Made by a program: the position numbers and the translations under genes. This document shows positions 8,192-64,000 of a stretch of DNA of 64,000 nt, piece after piece; position 1 is the stretch's first letter; every line of letters begins with the position of its first letter. The stretch is from contig JAOAKI010000001.1 of assembly GCA_026413765.1 (NCBI GenBank), positions 6,325 to 70,324 of the forward strand, written 5' to 3'. Under the pieces are notes generated by a model. It was not told where the DNA came from. It worked only from the letters and a program-made list of their open reading frames with translations, and ran no database searches. The DNA is from Candidatus Micrarchaeota archaeon (GTDB taxonomy: Archaea > Micrarchaeota > Micrarchaeia > Anstonellales > Anstonellaceae).

Positions 8192-8293
8192 CTGACCACC
8201 AAAAAAGTTTTTGAGGCAACATTTTAATTTGTAGCCTGACAGTGGCATGCTGCCTTGCGAACTTTTTAAACAGCTGCCCCACAAATCCCATAT

Positions 8294-9774: not shown

Positions 9775-10253
9775 TTTCTCCCCTTCCTTTTTCTCTTCTT
9801 CTGCCCAACCTCTCCCCTTTCCTTGAACAAAAGAAATTCGTTTTTCATTGGGCAAATTTCGCTGATTGCGCGCTTGCCTTCATATTTTGCAAGCCTTTCC
9901 TTCTTGAGCTTTTCAATCACCAAATAAAGAAAGGTTGAGAAATCTCTCAAATCTATCTCGTACTCCTTTGTTACCTCTTCGCACCGCTGCAGCAATTTCA
10001 CCATGTCCACCAATATCTGCGGGTCAATCCTCTCTCCTGCTTTTGCTGCCTTTATCTTTTCCAAAAGAAGAAGCCTTGAAAGCTCAAGCTCTTTTGCGAT
10101 CTTCCTTAGCTTGCCTGTCTTTTTTTCGACCTTGATTTGGAAATCGGTCGAAAGCTGCACTACAGTCTCCCACGAAAGCTCTCCTAAGTTTTGGCTCAGC
10201 TGAACCGGCAGGCTGTATCGCTCCGAGAAGGGCAAACTTTCTTTTTCCACCAT
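9771..10253 (-). CDS. hypothetical helical protein with basic C-terminal tail (160 aa)
   Basis: ATG start and translational coupling to pgiA. It is predicted helical and charged, and ends in KKRKRKGRK. No family recognised. Confidence 0.5.
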   Translation of the reverse strand: MVEKESLPFSERYSLPVQLSQNLGELSWETVVQLSTDFQIKVEKKTGKLRKIAKELELSRLLLLEKIKAAKAGERIDPQILVDMVKLLQRCEEVTKEYEIDLRDFSTFLYLVIEKLKKERLAKYEGKRAISEICPMKNEFLLFKERGEVGQKKRKRKGRK

Positions 10254-10281
10254 CTTTCTCGCAAATCATCTCTCAGCTTCT

Positions 10282-10290
10282 CTTTAAAAG
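10282..10290 (+). promoter_or_regulatory. TATA-like box (CTTTAAAAG) upstream of the HerA-like gene
   Basis: It lies 21-29 nt upstream of ATG 10311, consistent with a leaderless or short-leader archaeal transcript. Confidence 0.3.
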
Positions 10291-10310
10291 GTTACGTGAA
10301 AAACAGCATT

Positions 10311-11825: not shown

Positions 11826-11875
11826 AGAAGCCTGGCTGAACGCAATAATTTAAAGCTGAGCGCAGAAAGCCAGTT

Positions 11876-12787
11876 GTGGCAAGCTCCAATATTGTCAGAA
11901 GAGACCATCTCGGCAGGCTTGTAGTGCTCACTGCTTTGCGTAGCAGCAGGCCGCACGACTTTGGCCACCAAAAGCAGCCAAAGGTTCAGCAGCCAAAAGG
12001 CTGCTTTTTTTGCCCAGGAAACGAGCACCTCACGCCTCCAGAGATTTTCAGGATAGAGAAGGAAGGCAGGTGGGAAGTAAGGGTCTTTCCCAACAAGTTC
12101 CCTGCTTTCGACAGCCAAAGCAAATCCGCATATGGGCGGCACGAGGTCATTGTGGAGACACCAAATCACTACGCCACTCTCTCAGAGCTTTCAGTTGAAA
12201 ATCTTTTTGACTATCTTTCAGCGCTCTCTTTGAGGCTGGCTGACGCAAAAAAAGATCCAAAGCTCAAATACACTTCAATTTTCAAAAATGAAGGAAAAGA
12301 GGCAGGCTGCTCGCTGGAGCATTCGCACAGCCAGCTTGTCAGCATGCCATTCATCCCTCCTTTCATAAAAAAGCTTTCGAAGAAATCAAAAGCTTTCGCA
12401 AAGCTTGCCTCAAGCAGCAAGCTTTGCTGGGCAAGCAACCAGTATTTTGTCGCGCTCTGCCCAAAAGCACCGCGCTTCCACCTTGAGACCCTGATTTTGC
12501 CCAAGCAGCCAGAAGCATCGATGGACTTGATGGATGCTGAGAAGCTCTACAGCTTGGCAGAAATTCTCAAGACTGCTTTGGTGGCAATCGATAGGGCTGC
12601 AAACTTCCCTCCTTACAATATCATATTTCACAACGCACCTCACGGAATGGAAAGTTTCCCTTTCCACCTGCAAATCATTCCGCGGCTTTCGATTTGGGCT
12701 GGCTTTGAGCTTAGCACAGAAATTGTGATGCTTTCTGACTCGCCTGTGCAGATGGCAGAAAAGCTAAGGAAAGCCTCAATCGGCTAA
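11876..12787 (+). CDS. galactose-1-phosphate uridylyltransferase family (HIT superfamily) protein
   Basis: The Zn motif CFFCPGNEH and the active-site motif SLEHSHSQL (HxHxQ) are present. The start appears to be GTG at 11876. Confidence 0.8.
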   Translation: MASSNIVRRDHLGRLVVLTALRSSRPHDFGHQKQPKVQQPKGCFFCPGNEHLTPPEIFRIEKEGRWEVRVFPNKFPAFDSQSKSAYGRHEVIVETPNHYATLSELSVENLFDYLSALSLRLADAKKDPKLKYTSIFKNEGKEAGCSLEHSHSQLVSMPFIPPFIKKLSKKSKAFAKLASSSKLCWASNQYFVALCPKAPRFHLETLILPKQPEASMDLMDAEKLYSLAEILKTALVAIDRAANFPPYNIIFHNAPHGMESFPFHLQIIPRLSIWAGFELSTEIVMLSDSPVQMAEKLRKASIG

Positions 12788-13068
12788 TGCATATTTTTGT
12801 GCACTGTTACAGATATTTTTATAACCTTCTTAGCACAATCAGACAAGGCTTCTGTGGTGAGGTTATGCTGAAAGCAACTAGAAATGAGCTCAGCAAAGAC
12901 CATAAGCAACTGGCCCTAGCTGCAGTGCTGCATCGCGACGCAATTGCAAAATTCATCGAAAAAATAGCCCCAAAAGTCTCTCGGCTTCGCCCAAAATTCC
13001 TCCCTGTAGATAAGATAGTTTATTGCCGCCTTGGAAACAAGAAAGTCATCAAATTCATCTATTCTTAG
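12787..13068 (+). CDS. hypothetical ORF, possibly the N-terminal fragment of the downstream kinase-like gene
   Basis: Its ATG overlaps the GalT stop (TAATG). It ends in ...IVYCRLGNKKVIKFIYS, which resembles a kinase beta-3 (V-A-I-K) strand. A TAG stop follows, and the next ORF continues in another frame. Confidence 0.3.
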   Translation: MHIFVHCYRYFYNLLSTIRQGFCGEVMLKATRNELSKDHKQLALAAVLHRDAIAKFIEKIAPKVSRLRPKFLPVDKIVYCRLGNKKVIKFIYS

Positions 13069-13724
13069 GTGTTTTCTTGCAAGCCTTTGCTGTTTTTTTG
13101 GAAGGTTTTGAGCACCTCAGCTATCCTCTTGGGAAAGAGGACACTCCGCAGGAGTTCGAATCCAGAAAAGAGGCGTTTTTTCTTGTCAAGGTTGGAAGCG
13201 AGCTTGAGGCGCAATCTTTCGTTGCCGCCTGCGATGCTATCCAAAAGCATGCGTCTGTCCCTGTTGGCTATCTTTTCAAAGGAGGCGAATTTTTTTTGGT
13301 CTGCAAGCAAAGGAAATCCGCAAGAAAGCAGCAAACATTCATCACCCCAGAAGAAAAGCGCCAGCTTGCAGAGAAAATCATATTGAGGCTGGCCGAAATC
13401 CACTCCGAAGGCCTCTGCTGCGGAGGGATTTCTCCCGAAGCAATCGAATATGCTGAAAAAAAGGTGTTTTTGTCCGATCCTTCAAGGCTTTCTGCCTCGA
13501 CAGAGGCAAACGAAATGTTTTTCGAGGTCATTTCCACCCTCTGCCTGCTCAAAAAGCACAAGCTTGCATCCGAAAAAGATTTCGGCCGGCTTGCAAGCAT
13601 TTACCTTTCGTTCTCCCCAATCTGTCGCGACGCAGTGTATTCCTACTCAATTCAGAAAAGCAAAAAGGGCTCGCTGAAAGAGATCATCGTAAGATGCGCC
13701 GCAAAGTACTCCTCTTATTTTTAG
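13023..13724 (+). CDS. protein-kinase-like protein with degenerate catalytic loop (pseudokinase or decaying gene)
   Basis: LAEIHSEGLCCGGISPEAIEY...KVFLSDPS (13401-13445) aligns with the RIO/Bud32-type LHxxGxxHGDLxPxNI...DFG pattern. However, HGD is replaced by CGG and DFG by SDP. There is no ATG at the ORF start (TTG). Confidence 0.45.
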   Translation: MPPWKQESHQIHLFLGVFLQAFAVFLEGFEHLSYPLGKEDTPQEFESRKEAFFLVKVGSELEAQSFVAACDAIQKHASVPVGYLFKGGEFFLVCKQRKSARKQQTFITPEEKRQLAEKIILRLAEIHSEGLCCGGISPEAIEYAEKKVFLSDPSRLSASTEANEMFFEVISTLCLLKKHKLASEKDFGRLASIYLSFSPICRDAVYSYSIQKSKKGSLKEIIVRCAAKYSSYF

Positions 13725-16012
13725 GAAATCTGACTTGCGCGTGTTGGACTGTCTGCGCTTTTGTCTCTTTCAAGATTCCATACCGTCCCTTGCGCAGCCT
13801 GCCCAAGAGCCGACTCATGGGTGATTATGAACGTCTGCTGCACTATTTGGGGAATCTTTGTCTGTATTGCTTCGGAAAGGAGGGCAATTGCGTCACTGTC
13901 CAAATTGTGCGTAGGCTCATCAAGCACAAGCCAGCTGAGGTTAGGAGTAAGCACCGAGGCAAACGCAATCCTTAACGCAAGGCAGAGGCAGGCGCGCTCT
14001 CCCCCTGAAGCAATATTGTCCACCTCTCTCCACTCATCCTTGAACATAAGAAAGCGGTAGTCCTTTTCGTCAGCCTCTATCTTCACTTCTTTGTAGTCAG
14101 AATAGGGGTAAATTGCAGGCCATATCTCTGCCAAAGCTGCATTTATCTCCTCGATAAGGTCTGACCGCAGCTCGGTTTGGGCAGCAACCAAGCAATTCTT
14201 GTAAATTCTCATGCTTTCTGCTGCTTCTGCATATCTTTTTGCCTTTGACTGCCTCTGCCTTATTTGCGCCCACTCATTCCTGAGGCTCTCAATCATCTTC
14301 TCAAGAACTTGCTTTTTTTCGCTTTTGCCTTTCTCTTCCTGCTGCTTTCTTGCAAGCTCAAGGGACGCCTCACTCAGCCTTCTTTTTTTAAGCTCGTACT
14401 CTTCCTGGTCGAATTTGATGCTTTCAAGCTCAGCCTGGCTTTTTGCAAGCATCGTCTTGGCATCCTCAAGGTCGCCAAAAAGCTTGTCCAGCCTTTGTAT
14501 CTCCTCTGCTTCCTTTTGCGCCAGCAGAAGCTGCTGTTGCAGCTCAAACAGCCTCTCCTGCAGCAAATTGTATCCCAGCTGCTCCTTTTCTGCCTCTTGC
14601 TTGAGCCTTTCAATGTCCTCCTGCGGAAGCTCTTGCTCCTTTTCAGCTGCCTCTGCCTCAGAAAGAAGGCGCATTGCTTCAGCGATTGCGTTTTCTGCTT
14701 TTGCAGCTTCCTTTTGCGCCTCTTTTGCCTGCAGGCAGATTTTTTCCGCATCTTCCTCCTGCCTTTTCTTTTCCGCTTCTTTTTCTTTCCTCAACTGCAC
14801 TGCTCTTTGAGTATTCAAGAAGCTGTCGCACACAGGGCATTTTGCGTCTGCCTTCTCCAATGCCTTGATCGCAATCCCAAGCTGCTCAATCTTTGCGCGC
14901 ATAGCGGCGCATTGGCTGCCCAAAGCCTCTGCCTCTTCTTTCTTTCGCGAAAGCAGCTCTTCAGCCTCCTGAAGAGACCGGTTTTGCAGGATGCTGGCAG
15001 CCTTCGCCTTGAGCATCGCTGCCTTTTCTTTCCTTTCTTTGCGCAGCTTTTCTGCGCTCTGGGCAACCGCGATTCTTGACGAAAGCAGAGAGATTGCCTT
15101 CTGCTTCATTTCAAGCTCCTGCCTTTTCTGGACCATTTCTTTCTTGAAAGCCTCTGCTTTCTTTTCAGCAGCATAAAGAGCCTGCTTTTCTGGCTTTGCC
15201 TTGCCTTCAGCCTCTTTCTTCAGCCTCTCCAGCAATCCCTCTAGTTTCTTGCATTCTGCAGTCTGGGCTGCCCATCTTGTTTTTGCATCCTCAAGCAGCT
15301 TGACCTCAGCCTCAATCTCTTGCTTGGCCTTCAATGCGCCTTCGATTGCCCTGCGCAATGACTCCAGCTCTTGACCCAGCGACTGCAGCTCTTTTTCATA
15401 CTCGCCGATTTGCTTTTCAATTGCAGACAGCCTCTCTTGGTCTTGGGGGAGGCTGAGCGCCTCTGCCTGCTGCTGCAGCCTGGTTGCAGTAGTTTGCGCC
15501 TCTTTTGCCGCATCATCAAATTGCCCAAGGCCAAGCAACCAATCTATCTCGGTCTTTCTCTGCTTGGGGTTGAGCGAAAGCAGAAAGTCCATCCGGTTTT
15601 GCTCAGAGTATATCGCCCTGCTGAAAAGCTCATAATCTGTGCCCAATATTTCCTCTATCAGCGCTGTGGTCTGCCTTGTGCCTTTCTGCAGAAGCTTGCC
15701 ATCGCACCTCAGCTCTGCATCTGATAAATTCTTCCCTATTTTGCGGACCACTTGGTATTTTTTGCCTTCTTTTTCAAATTCAAGCTCCACCTTTGCGTAA
15801 GGGGCCATGCTGCCAATCCTGACCAAGTCCTCGGTTGTAATGTCCCTTCTTGCCAGACGCGGAAATGTGCCGTATAGCGCAAAGCATATCGCATCCAAGA
15901 CAGATGACTTTCCTGCACCCATCCTGCCAACTAGTATGTTCGTCCCTTTCGAAAAAGCAAATTCGCTGTGCTCGTGCGACTTGAAATTCTCAAGAGCCAA
16001 TTTTGTTATCAT
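13721..16012 (-). CDS. rad50: Rad50-type SMC-like ATPase with zinc hook
   Basis: Walker A is LVGRMGAGKSSVLDAICFALYG. A long coiled coil carries a central CPVC hook (14828-14839). The signature motif is SGGERACLCLALRIA and Walker B/D-loop is LVLDEPTHNLD. Confidence 0.85.
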   Translation of the reverse strand: MITKLALENFKSHEHSEFAFSKGTNILVGRMGAGKSSVLDAICFALYGTFPRLARRDITTEDLVRIGSMAPYAKVELEFEKEGKKYQVVRKIGKNLSDAELRCDGKLLQKGTRQTTALIEEILGTDYELFSRAIYSEQNRMDFLLSLNPKQRKTEIDWLLGLGQFDDAAKEAQTTATRLQQQAEALSLPQDQERLSAIEKQIGEYEKELQSLGQELESLRRAIEGALKAKQEIEAEVKLLEDAKTRWAAQTAECKKLEGLLERLKKEAEGKAKPEKQALYAAEKKAEAFKKEMVQKRQELEMKQKAISLLSSRIAVAQSAEKLRKERKEKAAMLKAKAASILQNRSLQEAEELLSRKKEEAEALGSQCAAMRAKIEQLGIAIKALEKADAKCPVCDSFLNTQRAVQLRKEKEAEKKRQEEDAEKICLQAKEAQKEAAKAENAIAEAMRLLSEAEAAEKEQELPQEDIERLKQEAEKEQLGYNLLQERLFELQQQLLLAQKEAEEIQRLDKLFGDLEDAKTMLAKSQAELESIKFDQEEYELKKRRLSEASLELARKQQEEKGKSEKKQVLEKMIESLRNEWAQIRQRQSKAKRYAEAAESMRIYKNCLVAAQTELRSDLIEEINAALAEIWPAIYPYSDYKEVKIEADEKDYRFLMFKDEWREVDNIASGGERACLCLALRIAFASVLTPNLSWLVLDEPTHNLDSDAIALLSEAIQTKIPQIVQQTFIITHESALGQAAQGTVWNLERDKSADSPTRASQIS

Positions 16013-16021
16013 CTTTCCGCC

Positions 16022-16255
16022 TCAGATAATCTCCTGGACAGCATCTGTTTTGGCTTTGTAGACTTCAATCACTTTCCTGTAGCGCATGAAGAATCTGTCT
16101 GCCGCCTTTTCGTCTTCATCTTGCACTATTATGACTGATTTGGTCTTCCAGGGGCAGCTGGAAAGCTTGCTTTTTTTCAGCTCATAGTAGAATCTTCTTT
16201 TGATTCGGTTGTAGTCTTTCATTGTTGTTTTCAAGTCATAAAAATAAATTATCAT
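16022..16255 (-). CDS. small protein (77 aa) co-oriented 9 nt upstream of rad50
   Basis: From ATG at 16255 it reads MIIYFYDLKTTMKDYNRIKRRFYYELKK...KSVIIVQDEDEKAADRFFMRYRKVIEVYKAK. The beta-alpha-beta-beta-alpha-beta pattern vaguely recalls Cas2/VapD-like ferredoxin folds. That comparison is speculative. Confidence 0.5.
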   Translation of the reverse strand: MIIYFYDLKTTMKDYNRIKRRFYYELKKSKLSSCPWKTKSVIIVQDEDEKAADRFFMRYRKVIEVYKAKTDAVQEII

Positions 16256-16304
16256 GCCTGCTTTATGGCACAAACTCAACTATAAATCTTGCTTTCTGGG
16301 AGCC

Positions 16305-16556
16305 TCATATTCGGTCGGCAGACAATATTTCTACGCTTGAGACATTTGGCAAGCTTGCCGCCCTTTCCTCAAGCAAGTCGGTGCCGCCTGCCTTGTCCTC
16401 GACAACAAAACTAGCGACAATTGCCACAATTCCGAATGCCAATGGCTGCTCTTCAACCTTGTATGGCTTGAGGCTTTCCTCAACATCTGCCTTCAGCTGG
16501 TCAAACTTCTCCATCTCTTGCGGCACAATTCTTATCTTTACCAATACTTGACCCAT
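16305..16556 (-). CDS. translation elongation factor aEF-1 beta
   Basis: MGQVLVKIRIVPQEME...EEQPLAFGIVAIVASFVVEDKAGGTD...VSSVEILSADRI matches the aEF-1beta pattern (KVMP...EPIAFGL...D.EGGT...V). Confidence 0.9.
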   Translation of the reverse strand: MGQVLVKIRIVPQEMEKFDQLKADVEESLKPYKVEEQPLAFGIVAIVASFVVEDKAGGTDLLEERAASLPNVSSVEILSADRI

Positions 16557-16569
16557 TTTCAGCGCACCT

Positions 16570-16722
16570 TCACGGACCTGCCCTTCCGCATGCAGGGCAG
16601 CTGTAAGGCAAGCTTATTTTCCTGCAGTGCGGGCATCGTACTATCTTGCTTCCGCATTCTGGGCAGGGAAATTCAGCATAGCTTTTTGTCCTCTTGCCGC
16701 AAGTGATACAGCTTTTCAGCAT
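16570..16722 (-). CDS. Zn-ribbon protein (50 aa, four CxxC pairs), not in ORF track
   Basis: Reverse translation gives MLKSCITCGKRTKSYAEFPCPECGSKIVRCPHCRKISLPYSCPACGRAGP*. Small double zinc-ribbon proteins adjacent to aEF-1beta are a conserved archaeal arrangement (COG2888-like). Confidence 0.7.
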   Translation of the reverse strand: MLKSCITCGKRTKSYAEFPCPECGSKIVRCPHCRKISLPYSCPACGRAGP

Positions 16723-16760
16723 CCGATTCACCTATGCAGGCATTAAAAGCCAATAATGTT

Positions 16761-16991
16761 TTAATTCTTTGGCAAATACTCAAGCAGACCTTCTGCAAGG
16801 TCAGACACTGCAAGCAAGGCAGCAATGAACATCACAAAGGGATGCACTCCTTTGAGGCTGATAAAGAAAATGTTTATGTTCAAATAGAGGGCAAGAAGTA
16901 TGCCAACCAGCACATAAGCCCCAATCACCAAATGGATTGTGCCGATGAATCTTGCCGCAGAGGCGCTGTCTTCTCCTTTCTTAATGCCCAT
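16761..16991 (-). CDS. small membrane protein (76 aa)
   Basis: ATG start and two hydrophobic segments (FIGTIHLVIGAYVLVGILLALYL, FVMFIAALLAV). Confidence 0.45.
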   Translation of the reverse strand: MGIKKGEDSASAARFIGTIHLVIGAYVLVGILLALYLNINIFFISLKGVHPFVMFIAALLAVSDLAEGLLEYLPKN

Positions 16992-17027
16992 CTTACCACC
17001 ACCAAGTCTAAAAATCGATATTTCTAT

Positions 17028-18209
17028 TTAAATGCCTGCTTCTTGCCTCAGTTTCTCTGCCTTGTCGGTTCTTTCCCAGCTGAATTCAGGCTCTTCTCTT
17101 CCAAAATGCCCATAGCTTGCAGTTTTTTTGTAAATCGGCCTTCTTAATCCAAGGTCTGCAATTATCTGCCCTGCCTTCAGCCTGAAGTTTCCCCTCACAA
17201 GATCGACTATCTTGTGCTTTGGTATCTTTTCGGTTCCGAATGTCTCAACAAAAATCGAGACAGGGTCGGGCACCCCAATCACATATGCAAGCTGCACTTC
17301 GCATCGGTCCGCGATGCCTGCCGCAACTATGTTCTTTGCAATATAGCGAGCCATGTAGGATGCAGACCGGTCAACTTTGGTGGGGTCTTTGCCTGAAAAG
17401 CAGCCACCGCCATGTGAAGCCATGCCTCCATAGGTGTCCACTATTATTTTCCTTCCTGTCAGCCCGGTGTCTGCCGCAGGGCCTCCAAGAACAAACCTGC
17501 CCGTCCCATTCACTATTATCTGCGTTTTTTCATCAAGATATTCCCCAATCACAGGTACAATCACATGCTCCTGCAGGTCTTTTTTTATCCTTTGAACCTC
17601 TATCTCTGCCCCCTGATAGCTTTCATCATGCTGAGCAGCAATCACCACGGTGGTCACTTTCTGCGGCCTGTTTTTTTCGTCATACTCCACTGTGACTTGC
17701 GTTTTTCCATCCGGCCTCAAATAAGGTATTGTGCCGTCTTTCCTTACTTGCGCCAGCCTTTTTGCAAGCTGGTTTGCAAGCATTATAGGCAGCGGCATCA
17801 GCTGCGGGGTTTCGCGCACGGCATACCCAAACATTATGCCCTGGTCCCCTGCGCCTATCTCCTCCAACTCTCCTTCCTCTTTTACTCCCAATGCTATGTC
17901 AGGCGATTGCGAATGGATAGAAGAAAGCACGCCAACGCTTTTGCTGTCGAAGTGGTATTCTGGCTTTGTGTAGCCTATTTTCTCAAGCGTCTCTCTTACT
18001 ATGTAATCAATGTCGCAATAGCCACTAGTGGTTATCTCCCCTGCGACAACCACAAGCCCAGTAGTGGCCATCGCTTCTACCGCCACATGGGAATGGGGGT
18101 CCTGGGAAATCAAATCATCGACTATCGCGTCAGCGATCTGGTCGCAGACTTTGTCTGGGTGCCCTTCAGTCACCGATTCGGATGTGAACAAGTATTTTCC
18201 GCTTCCCAT
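17028..18209 (-). CDS. metK: S-adenosylmethionine synthetase, bacterial/eukaryotic type
   Basis: [37 protein letters not shown] and [19 protein letters not shown] are classical MetK motifs. I chose the start at ATG 18209 ([11 protein letters not shown]). Two further in-frame ATGs lie upstream. Confidence 0.9.
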
Positions 18210-47648: not shown

Positions 47649-48417
47649 TTACCCTTATGAATATCTCACCAAAAAATTTTTCTTGAAAAAGCGAAAGCCT
47701 TTTTGCCTGCACGAGGTGAAGAAGCGGGATAAGGACAGATATGATTTCTACTGGCGTGCGCTCTTTCAGCAAAGAGGAAAAGGTGGCAAGCCCCTCCGAA
47801 TCCTTCTCTTTTAGCACCCGTTGATAAACTTCCTCCATTTTCTCTTCAATGTTGAACTCAGGCAGCTGTATGTTTATGACAGGCTGAATCTCAATCTTGC
47901 GCGCTTTCTCTTCTCTTCTTTTTTGCTCCTCAAAAACCTTCTCCATCGCAACCAAAAGCTCGTCTAATGTAACCATCCTTTTTGGCGGGATTCTCGTTCT
48001 CAGCTCCAGCACAGGTATGACTTCGGGCTCGGCATTCTCCTCCACATAAGTTTCTTCGACAGCCTCTTGTGTCTCCTCCTCAAATTTCAAAGCATAAGCC
48101 TTGAATCTCACCAGAATTGCGGCAGCCAATATCAAGTTGGCAGGTATTCGCAAATCCAGAAGCTCCATTTTTTTTATCCTTTCCAGGTAGCCCGTAGTTA
48201 TCTCAACAATGTCTATGTTCCATGGGTCAAGCTTTTTTGCGGCAACCAAATCAAGCAAAACTTCGCGCCAGGTCGGAATTGCGACGATTTTTTCAAGCTT
48301 TATGTCTTCTGGCTGAAGGTCCTCTACCGAAACACTTTCATGCTCTTCTACTATTTCTTCGCTTTCCTGGACGCCCATGCAAAAAATTTGGCATTCTTGC
48401 TTATATTTTTTTGTCAT
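47635..48417 (-). CDS. scpA: segregation and condensation protein A-like (kleisin)
   Basis: LDLVAAKKLDPWNIDIVEITTGYLERIKKM...IPANLILAAAILVRFK, plus a C-terminal winged helix (VEIISVLIPLLHL). Confidence 0.8.
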   Translation of the reverse strand: MTKKYKQECQIFCMGVQESEEIVEEHESVSVEDLQPEDIKLEKIVAIPTWREVLLDLVAAKKLDPWNIDIVEITTGYLERIKKMELLDLRIPANLILAAAILVRFKAYALKFEEETQEAVEETYVEENAEPEVIPVLELRTRIPPKRMVTLDELLVAMEKVFEEQKRREEKARKIEIQPVINIQLPEFNIEEKMEEVYQRVLKEKDSEGLATFSSLLKERTPVEIISVLIPLLHLVQAKRLSLFQEKFFGEIFIRVNEGG

Positions 48418-48464
48418 CCACCAAATTATTAAAAAAGCCGTCTGATAACTATTGCAATGGTTCT

Positions 48465-48956
48465 ATGGCACAGCAGAAGTCTTTCGATGAACTTGCGGAA
48501 GAAGTAGCCCAAAACGGGGGCTTTGCGGCAATTTTCTATTTTGACTTGCATGCCCCTTCTGAAGAAGAGGTCAAAAACCTCATGGTCGGCTTCATCAGCA
48601 AGCTGACAGGCGAGCCGGGCGTGCTTTACGCAGTAGGCGAGATTGACAAGCCAATCCAGAAAGAAAACCTTTTTTCTACCTGGGCAGAAGTCAAGATTCT
48701 GGCAAACGACTTTTCCACTCTGGTGAGGCTTTCCACAATGTATTCTCCGATAGGGGTGGAGATAATCCAGCCATCCGAAGTGAGGCTTTCACTTTCTGAA
48801 GCGCAAGGGATTCTGCTTGATATCTCGCAGACAAGCTTGAATTTCACCAAGCTGATTATGGAGCGTGTGCTTTCCAAAGAGGAAGTTGAGCAATATAAAA
48901 GCAAGCTGCAGCAGCGGGCAGAATTAGGAAAGAGGCTTTTGCAAAAAAAGCAATAG
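48465..48956 (+). CDS. hypothetical protein (163 aa) immediately upstream of a KaiC-like ATPase
   Basis: ATG 48465. It has a mixed alpha/beta N-terminal part and a C-terminal coiled-coil tail (EEVEQYKSKLQQRAELGKRLLQKKQ). No family recognised. Confidence 0.5.
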   Translation: MAQQKSFDELAEEVAQNGGFAAIFYFDLHAPSEEEVKNLMVGFISKLTGEPGVLYAVGEIDKPIQKENLFSTWAEVKILANDFSTLVRLSTMYSPIGVEIIQPSEVRLSLSEAQGILLDISQTSLNFTKLIMERVLSKEEVEQYKSKLQQRAELGKRLLQKKQ

Positions 48957-48965
48957 GTGTCTCCT

Positions 48966-49679
48966 ATGCAAGAAAAAGTGAAATCTGGCATCCCTGGTCT
49001 TGATAAGATGCTTGGGGGCGGCTTCCCAAAAGGTAGTGTGATTGCTGTTTCGGGCGGCACCGGCTCAGGAAGAACCACATTTGTTTTTCAGTTCCTTGCA
49101 GCAGGCGCGCTGGAATACGATGAGCCAGGGTTATTTTTGTCTTTTGACGAGCAAAAGTCATCTATCTATCCGCATCTTGCTTCTTTTGGCTGGGATCTTG
49201 TCGAGCTTGAGAAAAAGCAGCAAGTCGTTTTCATAGAATACCCCCAAAATGAACTTTCCTCGTTCGTGGAGCAAGAGGGGGCAATCAGGGACCTGATAGA
49301 CACATTAGGCATCAAAAGGGTGGCATTGGACTCAATCACTCCGTTTGCCTTGCTTTACACAAATCCAGAAGAAAGAAGGACAAATACGCTTAAGCTTGTC
49401 TCCGCATTGCGCTCTTGGAAGACGGTGTCTCTTGTGTCTGCCGAGGACATTCCTGGCTCTTCAACAACATTCCCCCACACGATCTCAGGCATCGAGTCTT
49501 TTGCAGACGGATTCATCCATATCTCTTTCCTTAGGGAAGGAAGAGTAAGGCACAGGACAGTCGAAGTGATAAAAATGAGAGGATGCAAGCACGAGCATGA
49601 AACAAGGCTGGCGCTTCTGACCGAAAAAGGATTCATGATAGTATCCGAGGAAGAAAAAGCTAAGAAAAGGCGCATTTGA
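48966..49679 (+). CDS. KaiC/RadA-like single-domain ATPase
   Basis: SGIPGLDKMLGGGFPKGSVIAVSGGTGSGRTTFVFQF is the Walker A region. RVALDS is Walker B-like. It ends in VIKMRGCKHEHE. Confidence 0.8.
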   Translation: MQEKVKSGIPGLDKMLGGGFPKGSVIAVSGGTGSGRTTFVFQFLAAGALEYDEPGLFLSFDEQKSSIYPHLASFGWDLVELEKKQQVVFIEYPQNELSSFVEQEGAIRDLIDTLGIKRVALDSITPFALLYTNPEERRTNTLKLVSALRSWKTVSLVSAEDIPGSSTTFPHTISGIESFADGFIHISFLREGRVRHRTVEVIKMRGCKHEHETRLALLTEKGFMIVSEEEKAKKRRI

Positions 49680-53776: not shown

Positions 53777-55213
53777 CTACTCTCTGCCTTCCTTGCTTTC
53801 TGCCCACATTTTTCTTATAAGCAAGCGAAGCTCCTCTCTTTTTCTTTCAAACTCTTCCTGTTCTTTCTCTGAAAGCTTTATCTTTTCGATGAATGTCTCA
53901 GTTTCTGCCCCTCCGAATGCTGGCGGCTGGATTGTCTCTGCGACAGCGGCAGCCTTTTGCTGCTCAAACGTTTCAACCTCATTTAGCAGTGCAGTAAGGT
54001 TCTTCTCCAACTCCTCCTGTCGCTTCTTTAAATCTAGTATTATTGCCTCCAAGCTTGTCAGCCCTTCTATCAATTCCCCCCTGCCTTCAATTGTTTCAAC
54101 CAGTTTTCGGTGCTCCTTGACAAGCCCCTCAATCTCTTTTTGCTTCTTGGAAAGCTCCCGCTGAGCAACTTCAACTTCGTTTTTAATTTCATCGTACTCG
54201 CTCCTGAAGCTTTGGATTGTTTTCTCAATGTCGCCCTCTTTTTCCTCAATCTGCGCAAGCCTTTCCTGCTGGCTTTTTACTGAGGCAAGCGCATCGTTGA
54301 GCAGCTCGGTGATGGCTTCCTTTTGTCTAGCTGCTTCCTTTTCCATCTTTGACAACTCGATGAATTGCCTTTTAACCGAGATTTCTTCGTCTTTTGTCAT
54401 CTCTCTTATCTGTTGCTGAAGAGCCTGGATTTCCTTTGAAATCTCTGCCTGCTCCTGCATTACCGCTTGTATTGCGCCGTCTAACTCGTCTTTCAGTTGG
54501 GCTAAGCTGTCAATCTTTTTTTGAATTTCTGCAATCTTTTCTTTCTGCCCTTTTTCTTGCAGCCTTTTCTTGAGCTCTTCGGCAGCACCGCTAAACGACT
54601 CAAACACTTGCTGGCTTGTCTGCAACTGCTCTTTGATTGTCTCTTCTTGTCTTTCCAGGATCCCAAGTGCCTCTTCAATCTTTTCGGCCAATTTTCCATC
54701 TTCGATCGCAAGCCCGCTTTTTTGCTCGAACTGCCTTATTTTCTGCTCAAGTTGCCTCAGCCTTTTGCTTCCTTTTGCAGCTGCCTGCTCATACGCCTTG
54801 GCCAAATCGGAAATTTCGCTTTTCAGCTTCTCAATGTCTTGCGGACGGATAGCCGCCGTCCTTTTCATCTGCTCAAGCTCTGCCTGAAAATTAGACAGCT
54901 CCTGATTCCCTTGCTTGACTTTCCCCAAAAGATTATGGACTTCGGCTTTCATCTGCTGAGTCTGGAGTTGGATTGGCTGCTTTTTTCTTGCTGCGCTGTC
55001 CGAGATGTCTTTTTTTACAAGATAGGTGCGCGTGAGTCGGTATTCTATCTTTATCATTCCCTCCTCTTCCAGCGCGCGCGCCCAGTCTTCGACAGTGTTT
55101 ATCGGAACCCCGATTTTCACCGCAGCTTCCGCAATGTCAATCCTGCCTTTCTCGTTTATCAGATTTATTAGTTGGTCCACCCCTGTCGAGATTAATAAGT
55201 CGTCCAACCCCAT
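53777..55213 (-). CDS. winged-helix-like N-terminal domain fused to about 400-aa coiled coil
   Basis: The N-terminus is GVDQLINLINEKGRIDIAEAAVKIGVPINTVEDWARALEEEGMIKIEY. The rest is heptad-rich and E/K/Q/L-dominated. No P-loop is present. Confidence 0.6.
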   Translation of the reverse strand: MGLDDLLISTGVDQLINLINEKGRIDIAEAAVKIGVPINTVEDWARALEEEGMIKIEYRLTRTYLVKKDISDSAARKKQPIQLQTQQMKAEVHNLLGKVKQGNQELSNFQAELEQMKRTAAIRPQDIEKLKSEISDLAKAYEQAAAKGSKRLRQLEQKIRQFEQKSGLAIEDGKLAEKIEEALGILERQEETIKEQLQTSQQVFESFSGAAEELKKRLQEKGQKEKIAEIQKKIDSLAQLKDELDGAIQAVMQEQAEISKEIQALQQQIREMTKDEEISVKRQFIELSKMEKEAARQKEAITELLNDALASVKSQQERLAQIEEKEGDIEKTIQSFRSEYDEIKNEVEVAQRELSKKQKEIEGLVKEHRKLVETIEGRGELIEGLTSLEAIILDLKKRQEELEKNLTALLNEVETFEQQKAAAVAETIQPPAFGGAETETFIEKIKLSEKEQEEFERKREELRLLIRKMWAESKEGRE

Positions 55214-55236
55214 ATTTCCCTGAATTCAAATCCAAT

Positions 55237-55246
55237 CCTTATAAAG
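55237..55246. promoter_or_regulatory. TATA-like element (CCTTATAAAG) in the 84-bp divergent spacer
   Basis: It lies about 24-33 nt from ATG 55213 (minus-strand gene). A second box, GTAAATAT (55271-55278), lies about 20-27 nt from ATG 55298 (plus-strand gene). Confidence 0.3.
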
Positions 55247-55297
55247 ATTTGCGCCAAACTTCCTATTCGTGTAAATATGCGGCTTACGGGGTCTTAA

Positions 55298-56479
55298 ATG
55301 AAAAGCTCGGATTTTGACATTCGCTTCAAGAAGGAGGCAAAAACTGCGCTCCAAATATTCAAGGACCAATCTTTGCTGAGAAAAATGTTTGGGGAGGAGG
55401 CAGTCAAGCTCTACAACATGATTGACAGCGGTCTTTCTGCCCAGCAACTTATGGAGCAGCTCGGATTGTCTGAGGAAAATTTTGTCAAAATCCTGGAATT
55501 CATGAACAACAATGGTATGATTAGCGTGGTGGAAGAAAGCCAAGAGGAAGAAATGCCAAAGATGCAAGAGCCAGTTCTACAGCCAACCGAGCTTTATGCC
55601 CAAAAAAAGGAGCCACCTATCTCTCCTGAAAACCTTTCTCCCATCGAGAAACTGATTTATGACAAATATGGCGAAGTCGGGATCAAAGTATACACTCTAA
55701 TTGATGGTGAAAAAACCGCAGAAGAGATATTGCGGCAGACGAACATTTCGGAGGCAAAGCTGGTTGAAATTCTTGAGTTCTTGGACGAAAAAGGGATTAT
55801 CCACCTTGAAAACCCCAAAAAAGACCAACAAGCCGAATCATCCAGAGTTGACAGCCAATCCGACAAAGAATATGAATACGAGCCAAAATTCAAGCCAATA
55901 ATTGAAGAAAGCCCGGAAGAAAAGCCGTTTGAGCCATCTCCACCACCGAAGCCACCCCAAATACCAAAAAAAGAAGAAAAGAAGGTAGAAGTTGCTGAAG
56001 ACATAATAATGGTCGATGTTCCAAAGATGGAAAAGCTTTCCCTTATGCAAAAAGCCACTCTTTTTGCAGAGCTTTCAATGAAATTCCCAAAAGAAGCCAG
56101 AAAGCTTATTTCGCTTGTGGATGGCAAAAAGGATTTTGTTGAGCTTGCATTGGAGACCGGCCTGTCGTTTTTCGATATTGATTCCATTTTTGCCTATTTT
56201 GGAAAAAAGGGGTTTTTCACCTTCAGCGTACTTTCGCGTGATGAAATAAAAAAGAGATATGGAGAAGACGGTTTTGCGATCTATAAGCGCTATGGGCGCG
56301 ACGGCCTCCTATTATATGAAATGATAGGCAAAGAGGCATCGCTGAAAGACATAATAACTAAAAGCAAAATTGACGTTGACCGTGCAGTCGATATTTTCCT
56401 TTTCATACACAAAGTCTTAGGGATAGATATTCCGCTTGACAGAGATATAATCTACAAGCAGCTTGGGCTCAAAAAATAG
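55298..56479 (+). CDS. protein with four tandem winged-helix-like modules and a Pro/Glu/Lys-rich linker
   Basis: The four repeats are at aa 31-77, 124-170, 263-309 and 332-377. An example is YGEVGIKVYTLIDGEKTAEEILRQTNISEAKLVEILEFLDEKGIIHL. The linker contains EPSPPPKPPQIPKKEEKK. Confidence 0.6.
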   Translation: MKSSDFDIRFKKEAKTALQIFKDQSLLRKMFGEEAVKLYNMIDSGLSAQQLMEQLGLSEENFVKILEFMNNNGMISVVEESQEEEMPKMQEPVLQPTELYAQKKEPPISPENLSPIEKLIYDKYGEVGIKVYTLIDGEKTAEEILRQTNISEAKLVEILEFLDEKGIIHLENPKKDQQAESSRVDSQSDKEYEYEPKFKPIIEESPEEKPFEPSPPPKPPQIPKKEEKKVEVAEDIIMVDVPKMEKLSLMQKATLFAELSMKFPKEARKLISLVDGKKDFVELALETGLSFFDIDSIFAYFGKKGFFTFSVLSRDEIKKRYGEDGFAIYKRYGRDGLLLYEMIGKEASLKDIITKSKIDVDRAVDIFLFIHKVLGIDIPLDRDIIYKQLGLKK

Positions 56480-56482
56480 TTC

Positions 56483-56911
56483 TTATTCTATCCTGCAAAG
56501 AGCCATCTTTTCAATTTCAAGCTCTGCCTCATAGTAGTTGCCGATTTTTTTGCCCCATAAAGGAATGCGGCAAGCTTCCGCCCTTTCCAGGCGCAATCTT
56601 TTTTTGACGGCCCTGCTTAGCTTCCTTTCTGACGCAATCAAAAAATCCGATGCGCTTTTTGCTCCCACCTTTTTTATGGCCGAGGAAAAGTTTGTCTCCT
56701 TTGCAAGGAAAAGCAGCGCCTCGTTTTGAATCTTGTCTGATATGTTCCTCTTTTCCTTGAATGCTTTCCTTGCAAGCTCAAAGGCAGCCACGAGTTCCAT
56801 TTTAGTTTTTGCTGCTTGGGGCGAAATTATCAGCAGTCCGCCTATTTTCTTGCTAGCCTCCACCAGCTCTTCAACCGAAGAAAAAGAGGAAGAGCACCGC
56901 AGGACTATCAT
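56483..56911 (-). CDS. cgi121: Cgi121-like KEOPS subunit
   Basis: At 142 aa, its KRNISDKIQNEALLFLAKETNFSSAIKKVG resembles the Cgi121 block (..S.E.LL.LSG.RQI..AI...G). Confidence 0.6.
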   Translation of the reverse strand: MIVLRCSSSFSSVEELVEASKKIGGLLIISPQAAKTKMELVAAFELARKAFKEKRNISDKIQNEALLFLAKETNFSSAIKKVGAKSASDFLIASERKLSRAVKKRLRLERAEACRIPLWGKKIGNYYEAELEIEKMALCRIE

Positions 56912-57046
56912 GTCCTCAATAAAGCTGCTCTAAATTTTTATTGCCTTCAGTTCATTGCTGGTTTTTTCATACACACTACCCATTCAGAGAAGACTATTGG
57001 AGTAGGCTTAAATAAACTATTATGTTATTTTTATACTGATGATGGT

Positions 57047-59155
57047 ATGCCGCAGAAAACTGCTGCACGAGAGCTGCTGCTTTACTCTGAAAGAATCAAA
57101 GCGGAAGATGTCTTGAACCTTTTCAATCAGGTGTTGAAAGCGAGAATGCCGCTTTTTGGCTTGATCGATTTTTCAGATCTGTTTTCCTTGGATGTGCTTG
57201 AGTTGGTAGTAAAGCGCAGGCTCAACACAGTGCAGTTTTTTGTTCATGATAAAAAATCGCTTGGCACACTGTCTATGCTGGTTTTCCCATACAAAATCTC
57301 CGAACCAATCGAGATAGAAAAGAAAGCAGGCTCGTTTCTACCTTATCCAAAAATTTATTTTTTGGTTGGCGACAGGGATTTTCTTAGCTTTATGCTCAAA
57401 GAAAGCATCGAAGAAATGAACCTCAAAATAATCAAAATTTTCGGGAAGTTTCTTGGCTTTGGGACCGCAGTAGATGAAAAAGGCAAAAAAAGCGTTCTAG
57501 TCAGCACCTCGCCTGAAAGGCTTCTTGTATTGGATTTAGAAAAAAACCCTTCAATATATGTGGAAGTTTTGGACCCTATCCCAAAAAGAGTGTCTTTGAG
57601 CTCAAAATACCCAGTTTTTGAGGAGACTGGCATCACAGTTGGAGTTGACAATTTCGATGTTTTCCAGCACACACTTTTTGTTGGCGCATCTGGGACAGGA
57701 AAAAGCAGAAGCATCTATGCGATGATAAAAGCGATAGAAGCGATGCATGGCGATGGAGTCCGGATTGTGCTTCTTGATCCTCATGGCGAATTCATCCGCT
57801 CAATGCATTACGCAAAAACTGTCAATTTCATTGAAAATTATATAGAGCCGCTTGATGTTGGAGGCATGAAGACACCTCTCATGACACAGCTGATTGCCCA
57901 GCTTCTTTCTTCTGCGATAGGGCAGGAGAACAAATATTCTGAAAGAGTGCTTTTTTACACAACCCACCTTCTTTCCTCGCTTGGCAAGATGGATTTGAAG
58001 AACATCGGCCTTCTGCTGACCGACTCAGCAAAAAGAGCAGAGTTTCTTTCTGAGACAGACAACGATGAAGTGAAGCGGTTTTTTGACGAAGAATTCAACG
58101 ACATTTATACACGCCATTTCAATGATGCGATTTTGCCTATTCTCAACTTTGTCGGTGAGTATGAGCTTTACCTTGGAGGCAAAAAAAAGCAGGAGAGCCT
58201 GCTGGAGCTGATAGACAACAACCGCCTAATTGTGATTTCTTTCAACCCAAATTTCTTTGGAAAAAGAATGATCAGTTTCATGGCGGGGGCGATTATCAAC
58301 CAAATGTATATTCTTGCGATAACCGAAAAGCTGAAGCTGCCGACAATCCTTGTGATAGACGAGTTCCAGAGGGTCGAAACCAAAGTTGTGAAAGACATCC
58401 TAGCTGAAAAAAGGAAGTTCAATTTGTATGTCTATCTGTCAATGCAATCTCTCGGACAAGTTTCAAAAGAGGTTCACGATTCGCTTGTTTCAAATATCCG
58501 AAACATAGTTGCATTCAAGGCAAACCGTCAGGATGCCGCGATGCTTTCCTCAATGATGGAGATAAAAATCGAGGAAGCGTTCAAAAAATCAAGAACCCAA
58601 GCCGAGCTGGAAGAGTCAAAGAAAGAGATGTTCATCCGTCTGCACCAAAGAGAATGCATAGTGCGACTTTTTGATGGCAAAAATTATATCCTTCCAATGA
58701 AGCTACGAGTTGTTGATGTTTACAAACTGTGGGGCTACAAAGAGATGCCATTGGAGCAACTGTCGCCCCTGTCTTCTGTGCCGCCTTCGATGGTCAAAAA
58801 GCAACAGCCTCAAGAAAGCCATCTTGAGCAAAAGCAAGAGGAGCCTGGCTTTCAGATGCCTCTGCATGAAGAGGAAAGGCACGAGCCTGAAAGCGAATCT
58901 GCCGCAAGCAGCGCGCCAGAAAGCATGCAGCCTCCAAAGCAGCCAAAGCAAGAGGCTGGAGAATCTAGCCAGGATCTTGCTGCTGATGAAAGAATTGAGC
59001 AAGAAAAAGAGCCAAGCTTTTTTGACAAAGCGATGCAGCCTGATGAAGAAAAGCCTGCTAAGGCTGCCAGCAGAGTCAAGCTGAAATTGGCAGCTGCCAG
59101 AAAGAAAAAGCCCGCTGCAAAGGCAAAGCCAAAGAAAGCCTCAAAGAAAAAATAA
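57047..59155 (+). CDS. FtsK/HerA-superfamily P-loop ATPase (VirB4/VirD4/HerA-like) with low-complexity C-terminal tail
   Basis: Walker A is FVGASGTGKSRS (57683-57706) and Walker B is ILVIDEFQRV (58346-58363). No TM segment is present. The N-terminal 250 aa or so are unassigned. The C-terminus is acidic low-complexity sequence followed by KLKLAAARKKKPAAKAKPKKASKKK. Confidence 0.7.
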   Translation: MPQKTAARELLLYSERIKAEDVLNLFNQVLKARMPLFGLIDFSDLFSLDVLELVVKRRLNTVQFFVHDKKSLGTLSMLVFPYKISEPIEIEKKAGSFLPYPKIYFLVGDRDFLSFMLKESIEEMNLKIIKIFGKFLGFGTAVDEKGKKSVLVSTSPERLLVLDLEKNPSIYVEVLDPIPKRVSLSSKYPVFEETGITVGVDNFDVFQHTLFVGASGTGKSRSIYAMIKAIEAMHGDGVRIVLLDPHGEFIRSMHYAKTVNFIENYIEPLDVGGMKTPLMTQLIAQLLSSAIGQENKYSERVLFYTTHLLSSLGKMDLKNIGLLLTDSAKRAEFLSETDNDEVKRFFDEEFNDIYTRHFNDAILPILNFVGEYELYLGGKKKQESLLELIDNNRLIVISFNPNFFGKRMISFMAGAIINQMYILAITEKLKLPTILVIDEFQRVETKVVKDILAEKRKFNLYVYLSMQSLGQVSKEVHDSLVSNIRNIVAFKANRQDAAMLSSMMEIKIEEAFKKSRTQAELEESKKEMFIRLHQRECIVRLFDGKNYILPMKLRVVDVYKLWGYKEMPLEQLSPLSSVPPSMVKKQQPQESHLEQKQEEPGFQMPLHEEERHEPESESAASSAPESMQPPKQPKQEAGESSQDLAADERIEQEKEPSFFDKAMQPDEEKPAKAASRVKLKLAAARKKKPAAKAKPKKASKKK

Positions 59156-59177
59156 TTGCTTTTTCAGTCAAGCAGAA

Positions 59178-59188
59178 CTTTTAAAAAA
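59178..59188 (+). promoter_or_regulatory. TATA-like box (CTTTTAAAAAA) upstream of rps8e
   Basis: It lies about 41-51 nt upstream of ATG 59229. GGAGGG (59217-59222) could serve as a ribosome-binding site. Confidence 0.3.
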
Positions 59189-59228
59189 CCAACATGGCTA
59201 ATATCTTGCTGCTTTCGGAGGGTTTCAG

Positions 59229-63406: not shown

Positions 63407-64000
63407 ATGGCTGAACAAAAAAAGCACCTGGCTTCTCGCAGTGGTGTTGTAGATTCTTATGTTTATGACAACGAAGGCATCCAAGTTCTTGCAAAAATCA
63501 TCACAAAAGAAGGCGAATACGTCCCGCTTTACGAAATCAGCGTCCGCGAGCTTTCAGAGGGCACAAGGCTGGTGCTGAATCAGCTTAAAGGGGAGCTCAT
63601 CACGACAGTGAAGTTGGACATAACCGAAATCATGGACCCAAAAAAAAGAGACGACGTGCGCAAAAAGTTTGAGACTAGGGCAAATTTTCTGCTAAGCAAG
63701 CACTTTCCTACTCTTTCTGAATCAGACAAGAAAGTTCTGACTGCCTATCTGATTCAAAACTCTCTGGGGCTTGGCGATCTTGAGCCTCTTCTTCACGATG
63801 AAAACTTGGAAGAAATAGCGATAAACTCCTCTTCCGAGCCGGTCTGGGTATATCACAAAAAGCACGGCTGGTGCAAAACAAATGTCTGGCTGAAAAGCGA
63901 GGAGGCAATCTATGACATCTCTGCTATGATCGGCAGAAGAATCGGAAAACAAATCAACATCCTCAACCCGGTGATGGATGCTCATCTTTCGACAGGCGAC
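63407..64000 (+). CDS. type II/IV secretion-family ATPase (archaeal PilB/FlaI-like), N-terminal part only
   Basis: Absent from the ORF track because no stop lies in the window. ATG 63407 is preceded by GAGGAGG. The translation is MAEQKKHLAS...LIQNSLGLGDLEPLLHDENLEEIAINSSSEPVWVYHKKHGWCKTNV...ISAMIGRRIGKQINILNPVMDAHLSTGD. This is the typical N-terminal region of archaeal secretion ATPases, upstream of the Walker motifs. Confidence 0.75.
   Translation, partial: MAEQKKHLASRSGVVDSYVYDNEGIQVLAKIITKEGEYVPLYEISVRELSEGTRLVLNQLKGELITTVKLDITEIMDPKKRDDVRKKFETRANFLLSKHFPTLSESDKKVLTAYLIQNSLGLGDLEPLLHDENLEEIAINSSSEPVWVYHKKHGWCKTNVWLKSEEAIYDISAMIGRRIGKQINILNPVMDAHLSTGD

Follow-up and report, generated by a model that had tools for sequence, protein, structure and literature searches.

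We studied a 64-kb stretch of DNA from a Candidatus Micrarchaeota archaeon (the window) and, within it, a pair of divergently transcribed genes, here called A and B, together with a nearby ATPase gene, D. A encodes a winged-helix (wH) head joined to a long coiled coil and B encodes four wH modules; on B's side, a Cgi121-like gene, D, and the S8e gene follow. The initial annotation of the window, made from the letters alone, had put forward A, B, and D as a candidate module concerned with DNA segregation, DNA transfer, or chromosome organization. Names carried by homologues place the window's organism in the Micrarchaeota, near the Anstonellaceae. The three open reading frames (ORFs) and the A/B spacer lie where that annotation placed them (Table 1), and A, B, and D all fall outside the named, characterized families, in line with that annotation, which could not assign any of them. 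Our comparison of related loci removes the misleading reading as a DNA machine and puts a pilus-linked assignment in its place; D, with its probable Cys-rich partner family, becomes a problem separate from A and B.

The divergent gene pair and its spacer

The scan of relatives started from an alignment of 27 B homologues (A1) and used one genome per GTDB species, which gave 110 relatives; 80 loci were fetched, all from Micrarchaeota (individual loci are given below as L numbers). Gene presence at these loci was scored by tblastn with the window proteins, and all of their ORFs were clustered and the recurrent clusters annotated with Pfam and NCBIfam. In 70 of the 80 species loci, the gene immediately upstream of B, on the other strand, encodes an A homologue, and the loci without an adjacent A are mostly contig ends or belong to the Burarchaeum clade. 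A and B, which the initial annotation had described as a divergent pair, are a genuine, conserved, divergently transcribed unit found throughout the Micrarchaeota. Beyond B, S8e is present in 61 of the 80 loci and Cgi121 in 33.

The A protein is conserved at its two ends (Table 1). The head, in which T10, V12, D13, W44, L48, and E49 are invariant, is an N-terminal wH or helix-turn-helix (HTH) domain that resembles those of Lrp/AsnC and gives weak HTH_24/Lrp-type matches, and its presumed recognition helix carries a net charge of -4 across the family; the C-terminal helix has the family consensus 'EEFERKREELRxLIxKLW'. The rest of A matches only the coiled-coil stretch of SMC/Rad50 models, at 20 to 35 bits against cut-offs of at least 567, and we found neither an ATPase head nor a P-loop in the protein. 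The absence of the ABC-type ATPase head speaks against a role as an SMC/Rad50-type chromosome organizer, and the label "chromosome segregation ATPase" that some database sources attach to A homologues reflects coiled-coil composition only. Weak Sso10a/Sul12a-type matches score far below their cut-offs. Neither a transmembrane (TM) segment nor a class III or Sec signal was found in A.

B consists of four wH modules separated by two acidic, Pro/Glu/Lys-rich linkers, which are disordered in the AlphaFold2 (AF2) model (mean predicted local distance difference test score [pLDDT], 78) and the second of which contains a short conserved motif, 'P-x-F-K-P-x-x-E-E'. The claim that these are four copies of one module was borne out for five of the six module pairs (hhalign probability, 95 to 99%); wH3 and wH4, which form one compact unit in the model, match each other at just 13%. 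wH2 is very conserved ('IDGEKTAEEIL...KLVEILEF'), and wH4 is conserved as well. A TrmB-type wH match (E < 1e-3) occurs in 20 of the 27 family members, and wH1 to wH4 have presumed recognition helices with median net charges of -3, -4, -1, and 0, respectively. Like A, B has no detectable TM segment or signal peptide. There are 210 B homologues, and all those that carry an organism name come from Micrarchaeota; B is specific to this lineage. A Foldseek search of the B model against the PDB returned only generic single-wH matches, none with E < 0.001, and the B profile found no match among PDB sequences.

The heads of A and the modules of B had been described as the same type of module. This holds at the level of the fold and no further, the similarity between them being weak (hhalign probability, 7%). 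Three more specific identities for B were considered and set aside: a fused ScpB dimer (hhalign against the window's ScpB, 0.1%), a TFE-like factor (TFIIE_alpha is matched by 2 of the 27 members only, below the cut-off), and, for wH repeats combined with a coiled coil, an ESCRT-II/CdvA-like assembly (cf. Makarova et al. 2024), which was dropped as the 80 loci contain no Vps4 or ESCRT-III.

Two further arrangements of such modules came to light. In the Burarchaeum clade (L001/L031, L039, L047, and L050), a ~95-amino-acid (aa) single-wH protein, homologous to the B modules, and a Cys-rich lipoprotein precede B and replace A; at L001, an integrase and an element resembling a type IV secretion system (T4SS), with TrbC, a T4SS pilin, and a TraC-like ATPase, lie just downstream of B. 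The 657-aa protein P0324, encoded on a 2.9-kb ENA contig, strings together five wH modules that match the A-head profile, with Lys/Glu/Pro-rich linkers between them; this is the architecture of B built from modules of the A-head type.

The spacer is conserved too. By eye, nearly all of 69 loci have a palindromic A/T-rich element ~23 to 30 nucleotides (nt) from the A ATG, so that the putative promoter element keeps a fixed distance from the start of A; this distance implies a leaderless A mRNA. In ~20 species, the L007-L028 positions included, the element lies in a near-invariant block of ~26 to 29 nt, 'GCAAATCCAATCCTTATAAAGATTTGTGC', although the A proteins of these species are only ~27 to 43% identical to that of the window. 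The block carries an inverted repeat, CAAATC...GATTTG, and the element is unique within the window. It could be an operator or a bidirectional promoter, that is, a TATA box with flanking sequences like the transcription factor B recognition element (BRE). A scan for bacterial-type promoters and terminators was uninformative for this archaeal DNA.

Linkage to a type IV pilus operon

In the commonest or ancestral gene order shown by these loci, B is divergent from a one-strand series made up of A, a pilus ATPase (Pfam T2SSE), a ~527-aa protein, two T2SSF genes, one TadB-like and one TadC-like, and a ~187-aa pilin; on the opposite strand, B is followed by Cgi121, S8e, and, further on, the methionyl-tRNA synthetase gene. 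We counted the distance from A to the ATPase over the 58 loci that hold A plus at least 1.5 kb of downstream sequence. The T2SSE gene is directly downstream of A and co-directional with it in 31 of them, with gaps of ~1 to 160 bp, and stands elsewhere in the locus in 12 more, the window's clade among them. Gaps of ~1 to 45 bp in dozens of species indicate co-transcription, and in most Micrarchaeota a type IV pilus assembly operon begins with A.

The other members of the operon support its assignment. The ATPase, represented by the L062 orthologue, matches Pfam T2SSE at 3e-40 and scores 286 bits with the NCBIfam model FlaI and 202 bits with TadA, in both cases below the equivalog cut-off. Two T2SSF genes, each encoding a single domain (about 300 and 357 aa), follow it, and the last gene encodes a class III signal peptide ('KGQAVMEYLITYG...', start '...KGQAVMEYLITYGLALFVILIV'). 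A regular-expression scan of the 64-kb window found no pilin with such a signal.

The window belongs to a clade in which this order has been rearranged. The ATPase gene runs off the end of the window (Table 1); its product is 89% identical to the N terminus of the T2SSE protein at L007 and 50% identical to the A-adjacent T2SSE protein at L062. Across the clade, the ATPase, the large protein, and two T2SSF genes form a block beyond PfkB, ~7 to 12 kb off on B's side; this block has moved ~8 kb away, and A and B have stayed together. At L007, T2SSE is followed by a 676-aa protein and then by two T2SSF genes, a pair also present at L008 and L010; the window's own T2SSF genes would fall past its end. 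A shared operator for the A promoter and the relocated ATPase promoter was considered and rejected, as their conserved elements differ.

The protein encoded after the pilus ATPase and ahead of the first TadB/C-like gene is a constant companion in Micrarchaeota. It is cytoplasmic, matches no family, and varies in length, from ~527 aa (L077:4857-6440) through 676 aa (L007:17412-19442) to ~850 aa at L010, L017, and L019.

Proteins with an A-type head are also found outside the Micrarchaeota. A profile of the A head built from Micrarchaeota alone (A2) finds a divergent group at E values of ~1e-16 to 1e-18, and an exhaustive search with a later profile that already included members of this group (A4) returned 2462 clusters at 50% identity (E <= 0.001), in two size classes of ~480 to 600 and ~380 to 390 aa. 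The A2 search, made against a 5.8-billion-protein set, gave short fragments of 132 aa or less only, apparently through length bias, and served solely to reveal the divergent subgroup. The shorter, ~385-aa class was aligned (A5), and 80 metagenome loci were fetched for it. The gene directly downstream of the ~385-aa gene is T2SSE in 65 of these, the remaining loci being contig ends, and two T2SSF genes and a pilin lie further downstream; in view of this adjacency, the wH-coiled-coil gene keeps its place at the start of the ATPase operon across deep lineages. Upstream are pilins with class III signals, which match Pfam Class_IIIsignal weakly, a ~887-aa protein with a von Willebrand factor A (VWA) domain, a ~320-aa membrane protein, and DUF192. 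B, D, and the ~527-aa protein are all missing from these 80 loci. Among the products of the genes upstream of the A-like gene at L090-L169 (for example, L125:1726-4392 and L102:2493-2837), the ~887-aa VWA protein is a candidate tip adhesin.

The ATPase D and other neighbors

D is a soluble P-loop ATPase of the FtsK/HerA/TrwB superfamily. Its Walker motifs are where the initial annotation had located them, and the superfamily assignment is borne out by Pfam (TrwB_AAD_bind, 37.2 bits, and DUF87/HerA, 36.7 bits, both above the cut-off) and by Foldseek searches with the AF2 model (pLDDT, 75.5), in which TrwB (1e9s) and HerA (4d2i) come top at ~3e-11, followed by VirB4, DndH-C, and TdpA at ~1e-10 to 1e-9. 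A longer form starting from a TTG at 56816 would overlap Cgi121, and alignment with the homologues begins at the first residue of the ATG form. The protein has a beta-rich N-terminal domain (approximately residues 1 to 200) that aligns in part with HerA 4d2i (517 aligned columns), a helical insertion resembling TrwB's all-alpha domain, and, from approximately residue 585, a disordered tail, acidic and then Lys-rich, that varies among homologues. Many core positions are invariant in 32 homologues, and the micrarchaeal homologues listed are 50 to 76% identical. This high conservation argues for a housekeeping role and against a defense reading, the PADLOC model mad8 scoring 45 bits with D and HerA models matching weakly. 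Among NCBIfam models, TraD gives 22.9 bits against a cut-off of 521, and HerA and CedD are likewise far below their cut-offs. D as a type IV coupling protein (VirD4/TrwB/TraD) fails for want of a membrane anchor and of a T4SS context: no TM segment was found in D, and the six D contexts inspected, the window's included, hold no T4SS, relaxase, NurA, Mre11, or Rad50 genes.

The proposal that D forms a module with A and B had been tied to their domain types and their proximity, D starting 567 bp after B. Conserved co-occurrence is not seen for D, which lies within 10 kb of B in none of the 80 loci; in the L008 genome it is on a different contig, among sugar-metabolism genes, and the five other D contexts (L004, L005, L006, L087, and L088) hold neither A nor B. 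In the closest relatives, L007 and L008, whose B proteins are 70% and 67% identical to that of the window, Cgi121 and S8e are adjacent, ~68 bp apart. The ancestral Cgi121-S8e spacer, including the TATA box and Shine-Dalgarno sequence of S8e, is intact downstream of D at 59156-59228 (compare L007:11612-11679). Its retention indicates that D, with its own 135-bp upstream region, was inserted at the start of Cgi121 in this lineage only; we saw no repeats or integrase at the insertion site. Four of the five other D contexts carry a Cys-rich paralogous family with a unit of ~255 aa, single or tandem, that reaches at least 11 copies in one locus and whose C-terminal half repeats 'C..C....N...C.NC.FCFN'. 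The family matches nothing in Pfam or NCBIfam, and none of its members is encoded in the 64-kb window. D probably has its true functional partner in this family, and the function of D is independent of A and B.

The Cgi121-like gene is a housekeeping neighbor that keeps synteny with B and S8e across many Micrarchaeota but does not belong to the A/B unit; the window's protein falls short of the NCBIfam model (39.1 bits; cut-off, 40) and of the Pfam model (16.6; cut-off, 25), which the L042 orthologue passes with 28.2 bits. The nearness of scpAB and a KaiC-like gene had been offered as a further clue to function, and it proved to be confined to the window's own clade. There, at 48222-49679 of the window, lies a gene for a ~164-aa protein (probable start, 'MAQQKSFDE...'), whose stop codon overlaps the start codon of the next gene, which encodes a KaiC-like ATPase of 240 aa with a single domain; this pair, beside scpAB and the tryptophanyl-tRNA synthetase gene, is kept only in that clade.

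Table 1. Features of the locus (window positions unless a locus is named)
Feature	Position	Strand	Remark
Gene A	53777-55213	-	ORF of 478 aa
A, wH head	residues 1-66; nt 55016-55213	-	conserved, acidic (family conservation profile)
A, coiled-coil rod	about residues 70-440	-	poorly conserved (family conservation profile)
A, C-terminal helix 'EEqEEFERKREELRlLIrKMW'	about residues 447-472; nt 53798-53875	-	conserved (conservation profile)
A/B spacer	55214-55297		84 bp, shared; putative divergent promoter region
Block around putative TATA box of A	55229-55251		near-invariant in the window's clade
Palindromic TATA-like element CCTTATAAAG	55237-55246		inside the conserved block; putative promoter element
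Second TATA-like site GTAAATAT	about 55272-55279		~20 nt upstream of the B ATG (from sequence)
Gene B	55298-56479	+	ORF of 393 aa
B, wH1	55319-55537	+	wH module
B, wH2	55622-55816	+	wH module
B, wH3	56006-56233	+	wH module
B, wH4	56234-56476	+	wH module
Cgi121-like KEOPS subunit gene	56483-56911	-	borderline model match
Gene D	57047-59155	+	702 aa from ATG
D, Walker A GASGTGKS	residues 213-220; 57683-57706	+	motif
D, Walker B	residues 434-439; 58346-58363	+	motif
FlaI/TadA-like pilus ATPase gene (T2SSE)	63407-64000	+	5' part, runs off window end; orthologue of the gene following A elsewhere
Cys-rich family beside D	L004:10387-15124; L005:6421-7996; L006:1997-7784, 10129-17922; L087:3977-5569, 8199-9824

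Proposed role, alternatives, and known systems

Attachment to host cells is the way of life of Micrarchaeota and other DPANN archaea, and type IV pili are prime candidates for making this contact; to our knowledge, the cytoplasmic parts of their pilus motors have not been characterized. Against this background, we propose, with a probability of roughly 0.5, that A and B are a pair belonging to a Tad/Epd-like type IV pilus locus and act as a cytoplasmic scaffold or adaptor of the pilus motor. A is the micrarchaeal version of a widespread wH-head/coiled-coil family encoded immediately upstream of a pilus ATPase. The presumed recognition helices, all acidic or neutral, favor a scaffold or adaptor. 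Both proteins, having neither signal peptide nor TM segment, would be cytoplasmic; A would form a long oligomeric rod with two predicted docking sites, its acidic head and its C-terminal amphipathic helix, and B a multivalent hub of four acidic or neutral modules on flexible linkers. Together they may scaffold, position, or gate the motor made of ATPase and platform, a role (not an ancestry) like that played in other type IV filament machines by cytoplasmic rings and adaptors specific to their lineages. More tentatively, and with odds we would put clearly below even, the two proteins may be core parts of a previously unrecognized cytoplasmic apparatus of DPANN pili, in which the B hub organizes A and the motor is positioned or gated at the contact with the host. 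If so, the wH-coiled-coil family, with its >2000 clusters at 50% identity, would be a general, unnamed part of archaeal Tad-like machines and would offer a handle on host attachment by ultrasmall symbionts.

Several observations weigh against a pilus role for the pair. In the clades L033-L042, the neighbors of A and B are uvrAB, and pilus genes are absent from the surrounding 10 kb. Equal synteny links B to Cgi121 and S8e, so that part of the linkage could be inherited gene order in small genomes, and the B gene of the Burarchaeum clade has no A next to it. No B homologue is detectable in the other lineage's pilus loci, and the tie of B to the pilus accordingly runs through its pairing with A only. 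The strongly conserved palindromic block in the A promoter has the look of an operator for a wH regulator, and wH2 of the window's B exceeds the Pfam TrmB cut-off (28.7 versus 25.6 bits, residues 134 to 171).

The last two points belong to the alternative that we take most seriously, though we consider it unlikely: B, perhaps with A, would be a transcription factor acting on the palindromic element over the A TATA box, and the coiled coil of A would only oligomerize. The layout of the 70 loci with the divergent pair is the classic one of a regulator transcribed away from its target, TrmB-type modules prevail in the B family, the A head is Lrp/AsnC-like, and the TATA block has stayed near-invariant in ~20 species while A diverged. 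Yet each module carries a presumed recognition helix that is acidic or hydrophobic (median charges, -4 to 0), and a coiled coil of ~370 residues together with four wH modules on long acidic linkers is atypical of archaeal operon regulators. Moreover, the A-like family holds its position in a lineage that lacks B, a palindromic TATA box with BRE-like flanks is explicable by the promoter alone, and the conserved element upstream of the relocated ATPase operon, in the window's clade, is a different one.

It is improbable, in our judgment, that A and B serve a process other than the pilus, such as a cytoskeletal, cell-division, or chromatin scaffold, and that their adjacency to pilus genes is inherited order. 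The pair does stay together where pilus genes are not near (L033-L042, and the window's clade at ~8 kb), the synteny of B with S8e matches that of A with the ATPase, and there are the Sso10a/Sul12a-type matches. These matches are far under their cut-offs, however, the A-ATPase gaps are as short as ~1 to 45 bp in dozens of species, and the same arrangement with a much shorter A-like protein in a separate lineage is hard to explain by inertia. We find it very improbable that A is an exported, fiber-like attachment protein delivered by the pilus machinery to the contact with the host. The idea draws on Hamm et al., who, in their treatment of the pilus loci of host-attached DPANN archaea, liken the coiled-coil proteins (CCPs) encoded there to reovirus sigma-1 (PMC11291902); A, unlike the true pilins of its operon, carries neither a class III or Sec signal nor a TM segment, the domain conserved at its head is a wH/HTH of cytoplasmic type, and long coiled coils match each other nonspecifically. 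Finally, a single machine of A, B, and D for DNA segregation, DNA transfer, or chromosome organization, suggested by the closeness of the three genes in this window, by how well wH modules, a coiled coil, and a translocase fold of hexameric type fit together, and by the names of some A homologues, is hardly credible now that D is missing from all 80 B loci (and on a separate contig in the L008 genome), sits as an insertion beside an intact S8e promoter, and recurs with a Cys-rich family, while A is operonic with pilus ATPase, platform, and pilin genes and has no ATPase head, B is unrelated to ScpB, and the wH helices are acidic or neutral.

D shares with TrwB/VirD4 and HerA the RecA-like P-loop core with a helical insertion, but it is soluble and has a distinct beta-rich N-terminal domain, a Cys-rich neighbor, and no T4SS, relaxase, or NurA nearby. 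B resembles TrmB regulators (PF01978) in that its modules, chiefly wH2, match the TrmB wH model; the match covers ~38 residues of the HTH core, and B differs in its four tandem modules, its acidic recognition helices, and its lack of an effector-binding domain.

For the proposed role of A and B, the closest parallels are in filament motors. In the archaellum motor, the FlaI-type ATPase is surrounded or docked by ArlX (FlaX) and ArlCDE, partly coiled-coil proteins that are specific to their lineages, and PilM/N/O and TadZ are parts of comparable role in bacterial machines. The A-adjacent ATPase likewise has FlaI as its best NCBIfam match. ArlX, however, has an N-terminal membrane anchor, which A lacks, there is no sequence similarity between them, and the archaellum has FlaJ and archaellins where the A/B locus has two single-domain TadB/C-like platform proteins and pilins. 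Within archaeal pilus loci, the section of Makarova, Koonin and Albers (2016) on subclade 4F describes arCOG07564, a cytoplasmic coiled-coil protein of haloarchaeal loci, proposes it as a regulatory subunit, and places ATPases of the 4F type in "nanoarchaea" as well (PMC4858521). By this description, arCOG07564 is like A an intracellular coiled coil specific to one clade of archaeal pilus loci; it comes from a different phylum, and that section reports neither a wH head nor a wH-repeat partner for it.

The nearest precedent is that of Hamm et al. (2024, Nat Commun 15:6449), whose account of pilus loci describes two conserved type IV pilus loci (CpaF and TadC) in cluster-2 DPANN and Undinarchaeota, together with CCPs that are detected in proteomes and likened to an attachment fiber, the sigma-1 protein (PMC11291902). 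In that account, CCPs are reported for Nanohaloarchaeota, Woese-, Pace-, Nano-, and Aenigmarchaeota, and Undinarchaeota and not for Micrarchaeota, and it mentions neither a wH head nor a four-wH partner, in which it differs from what we see for A and B. The wH head of coiled-coil pilus-locus proteins and the partner B therefore appear undescribed: in at least two deep lineages, the operon of the pilus ATPase starts with a member of a large unnamed wH-head/coiled-coil family, and in Micrarchaeota its A-type member has a dedicated four-wH partner. Like the CCP loci, the micrarchaeal loci have a coiled-coil gene by a CpaF/TadA-like ATPase and TadC-like genes, the window's ATPase being ~8 kb from A. 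The ~385-aa class occurs in exactly the CCP context and shares the N-terminal domain of A; judged by that context, its members would belong with the published CCPs, among them NAR1_03220 and NAR1_01690.

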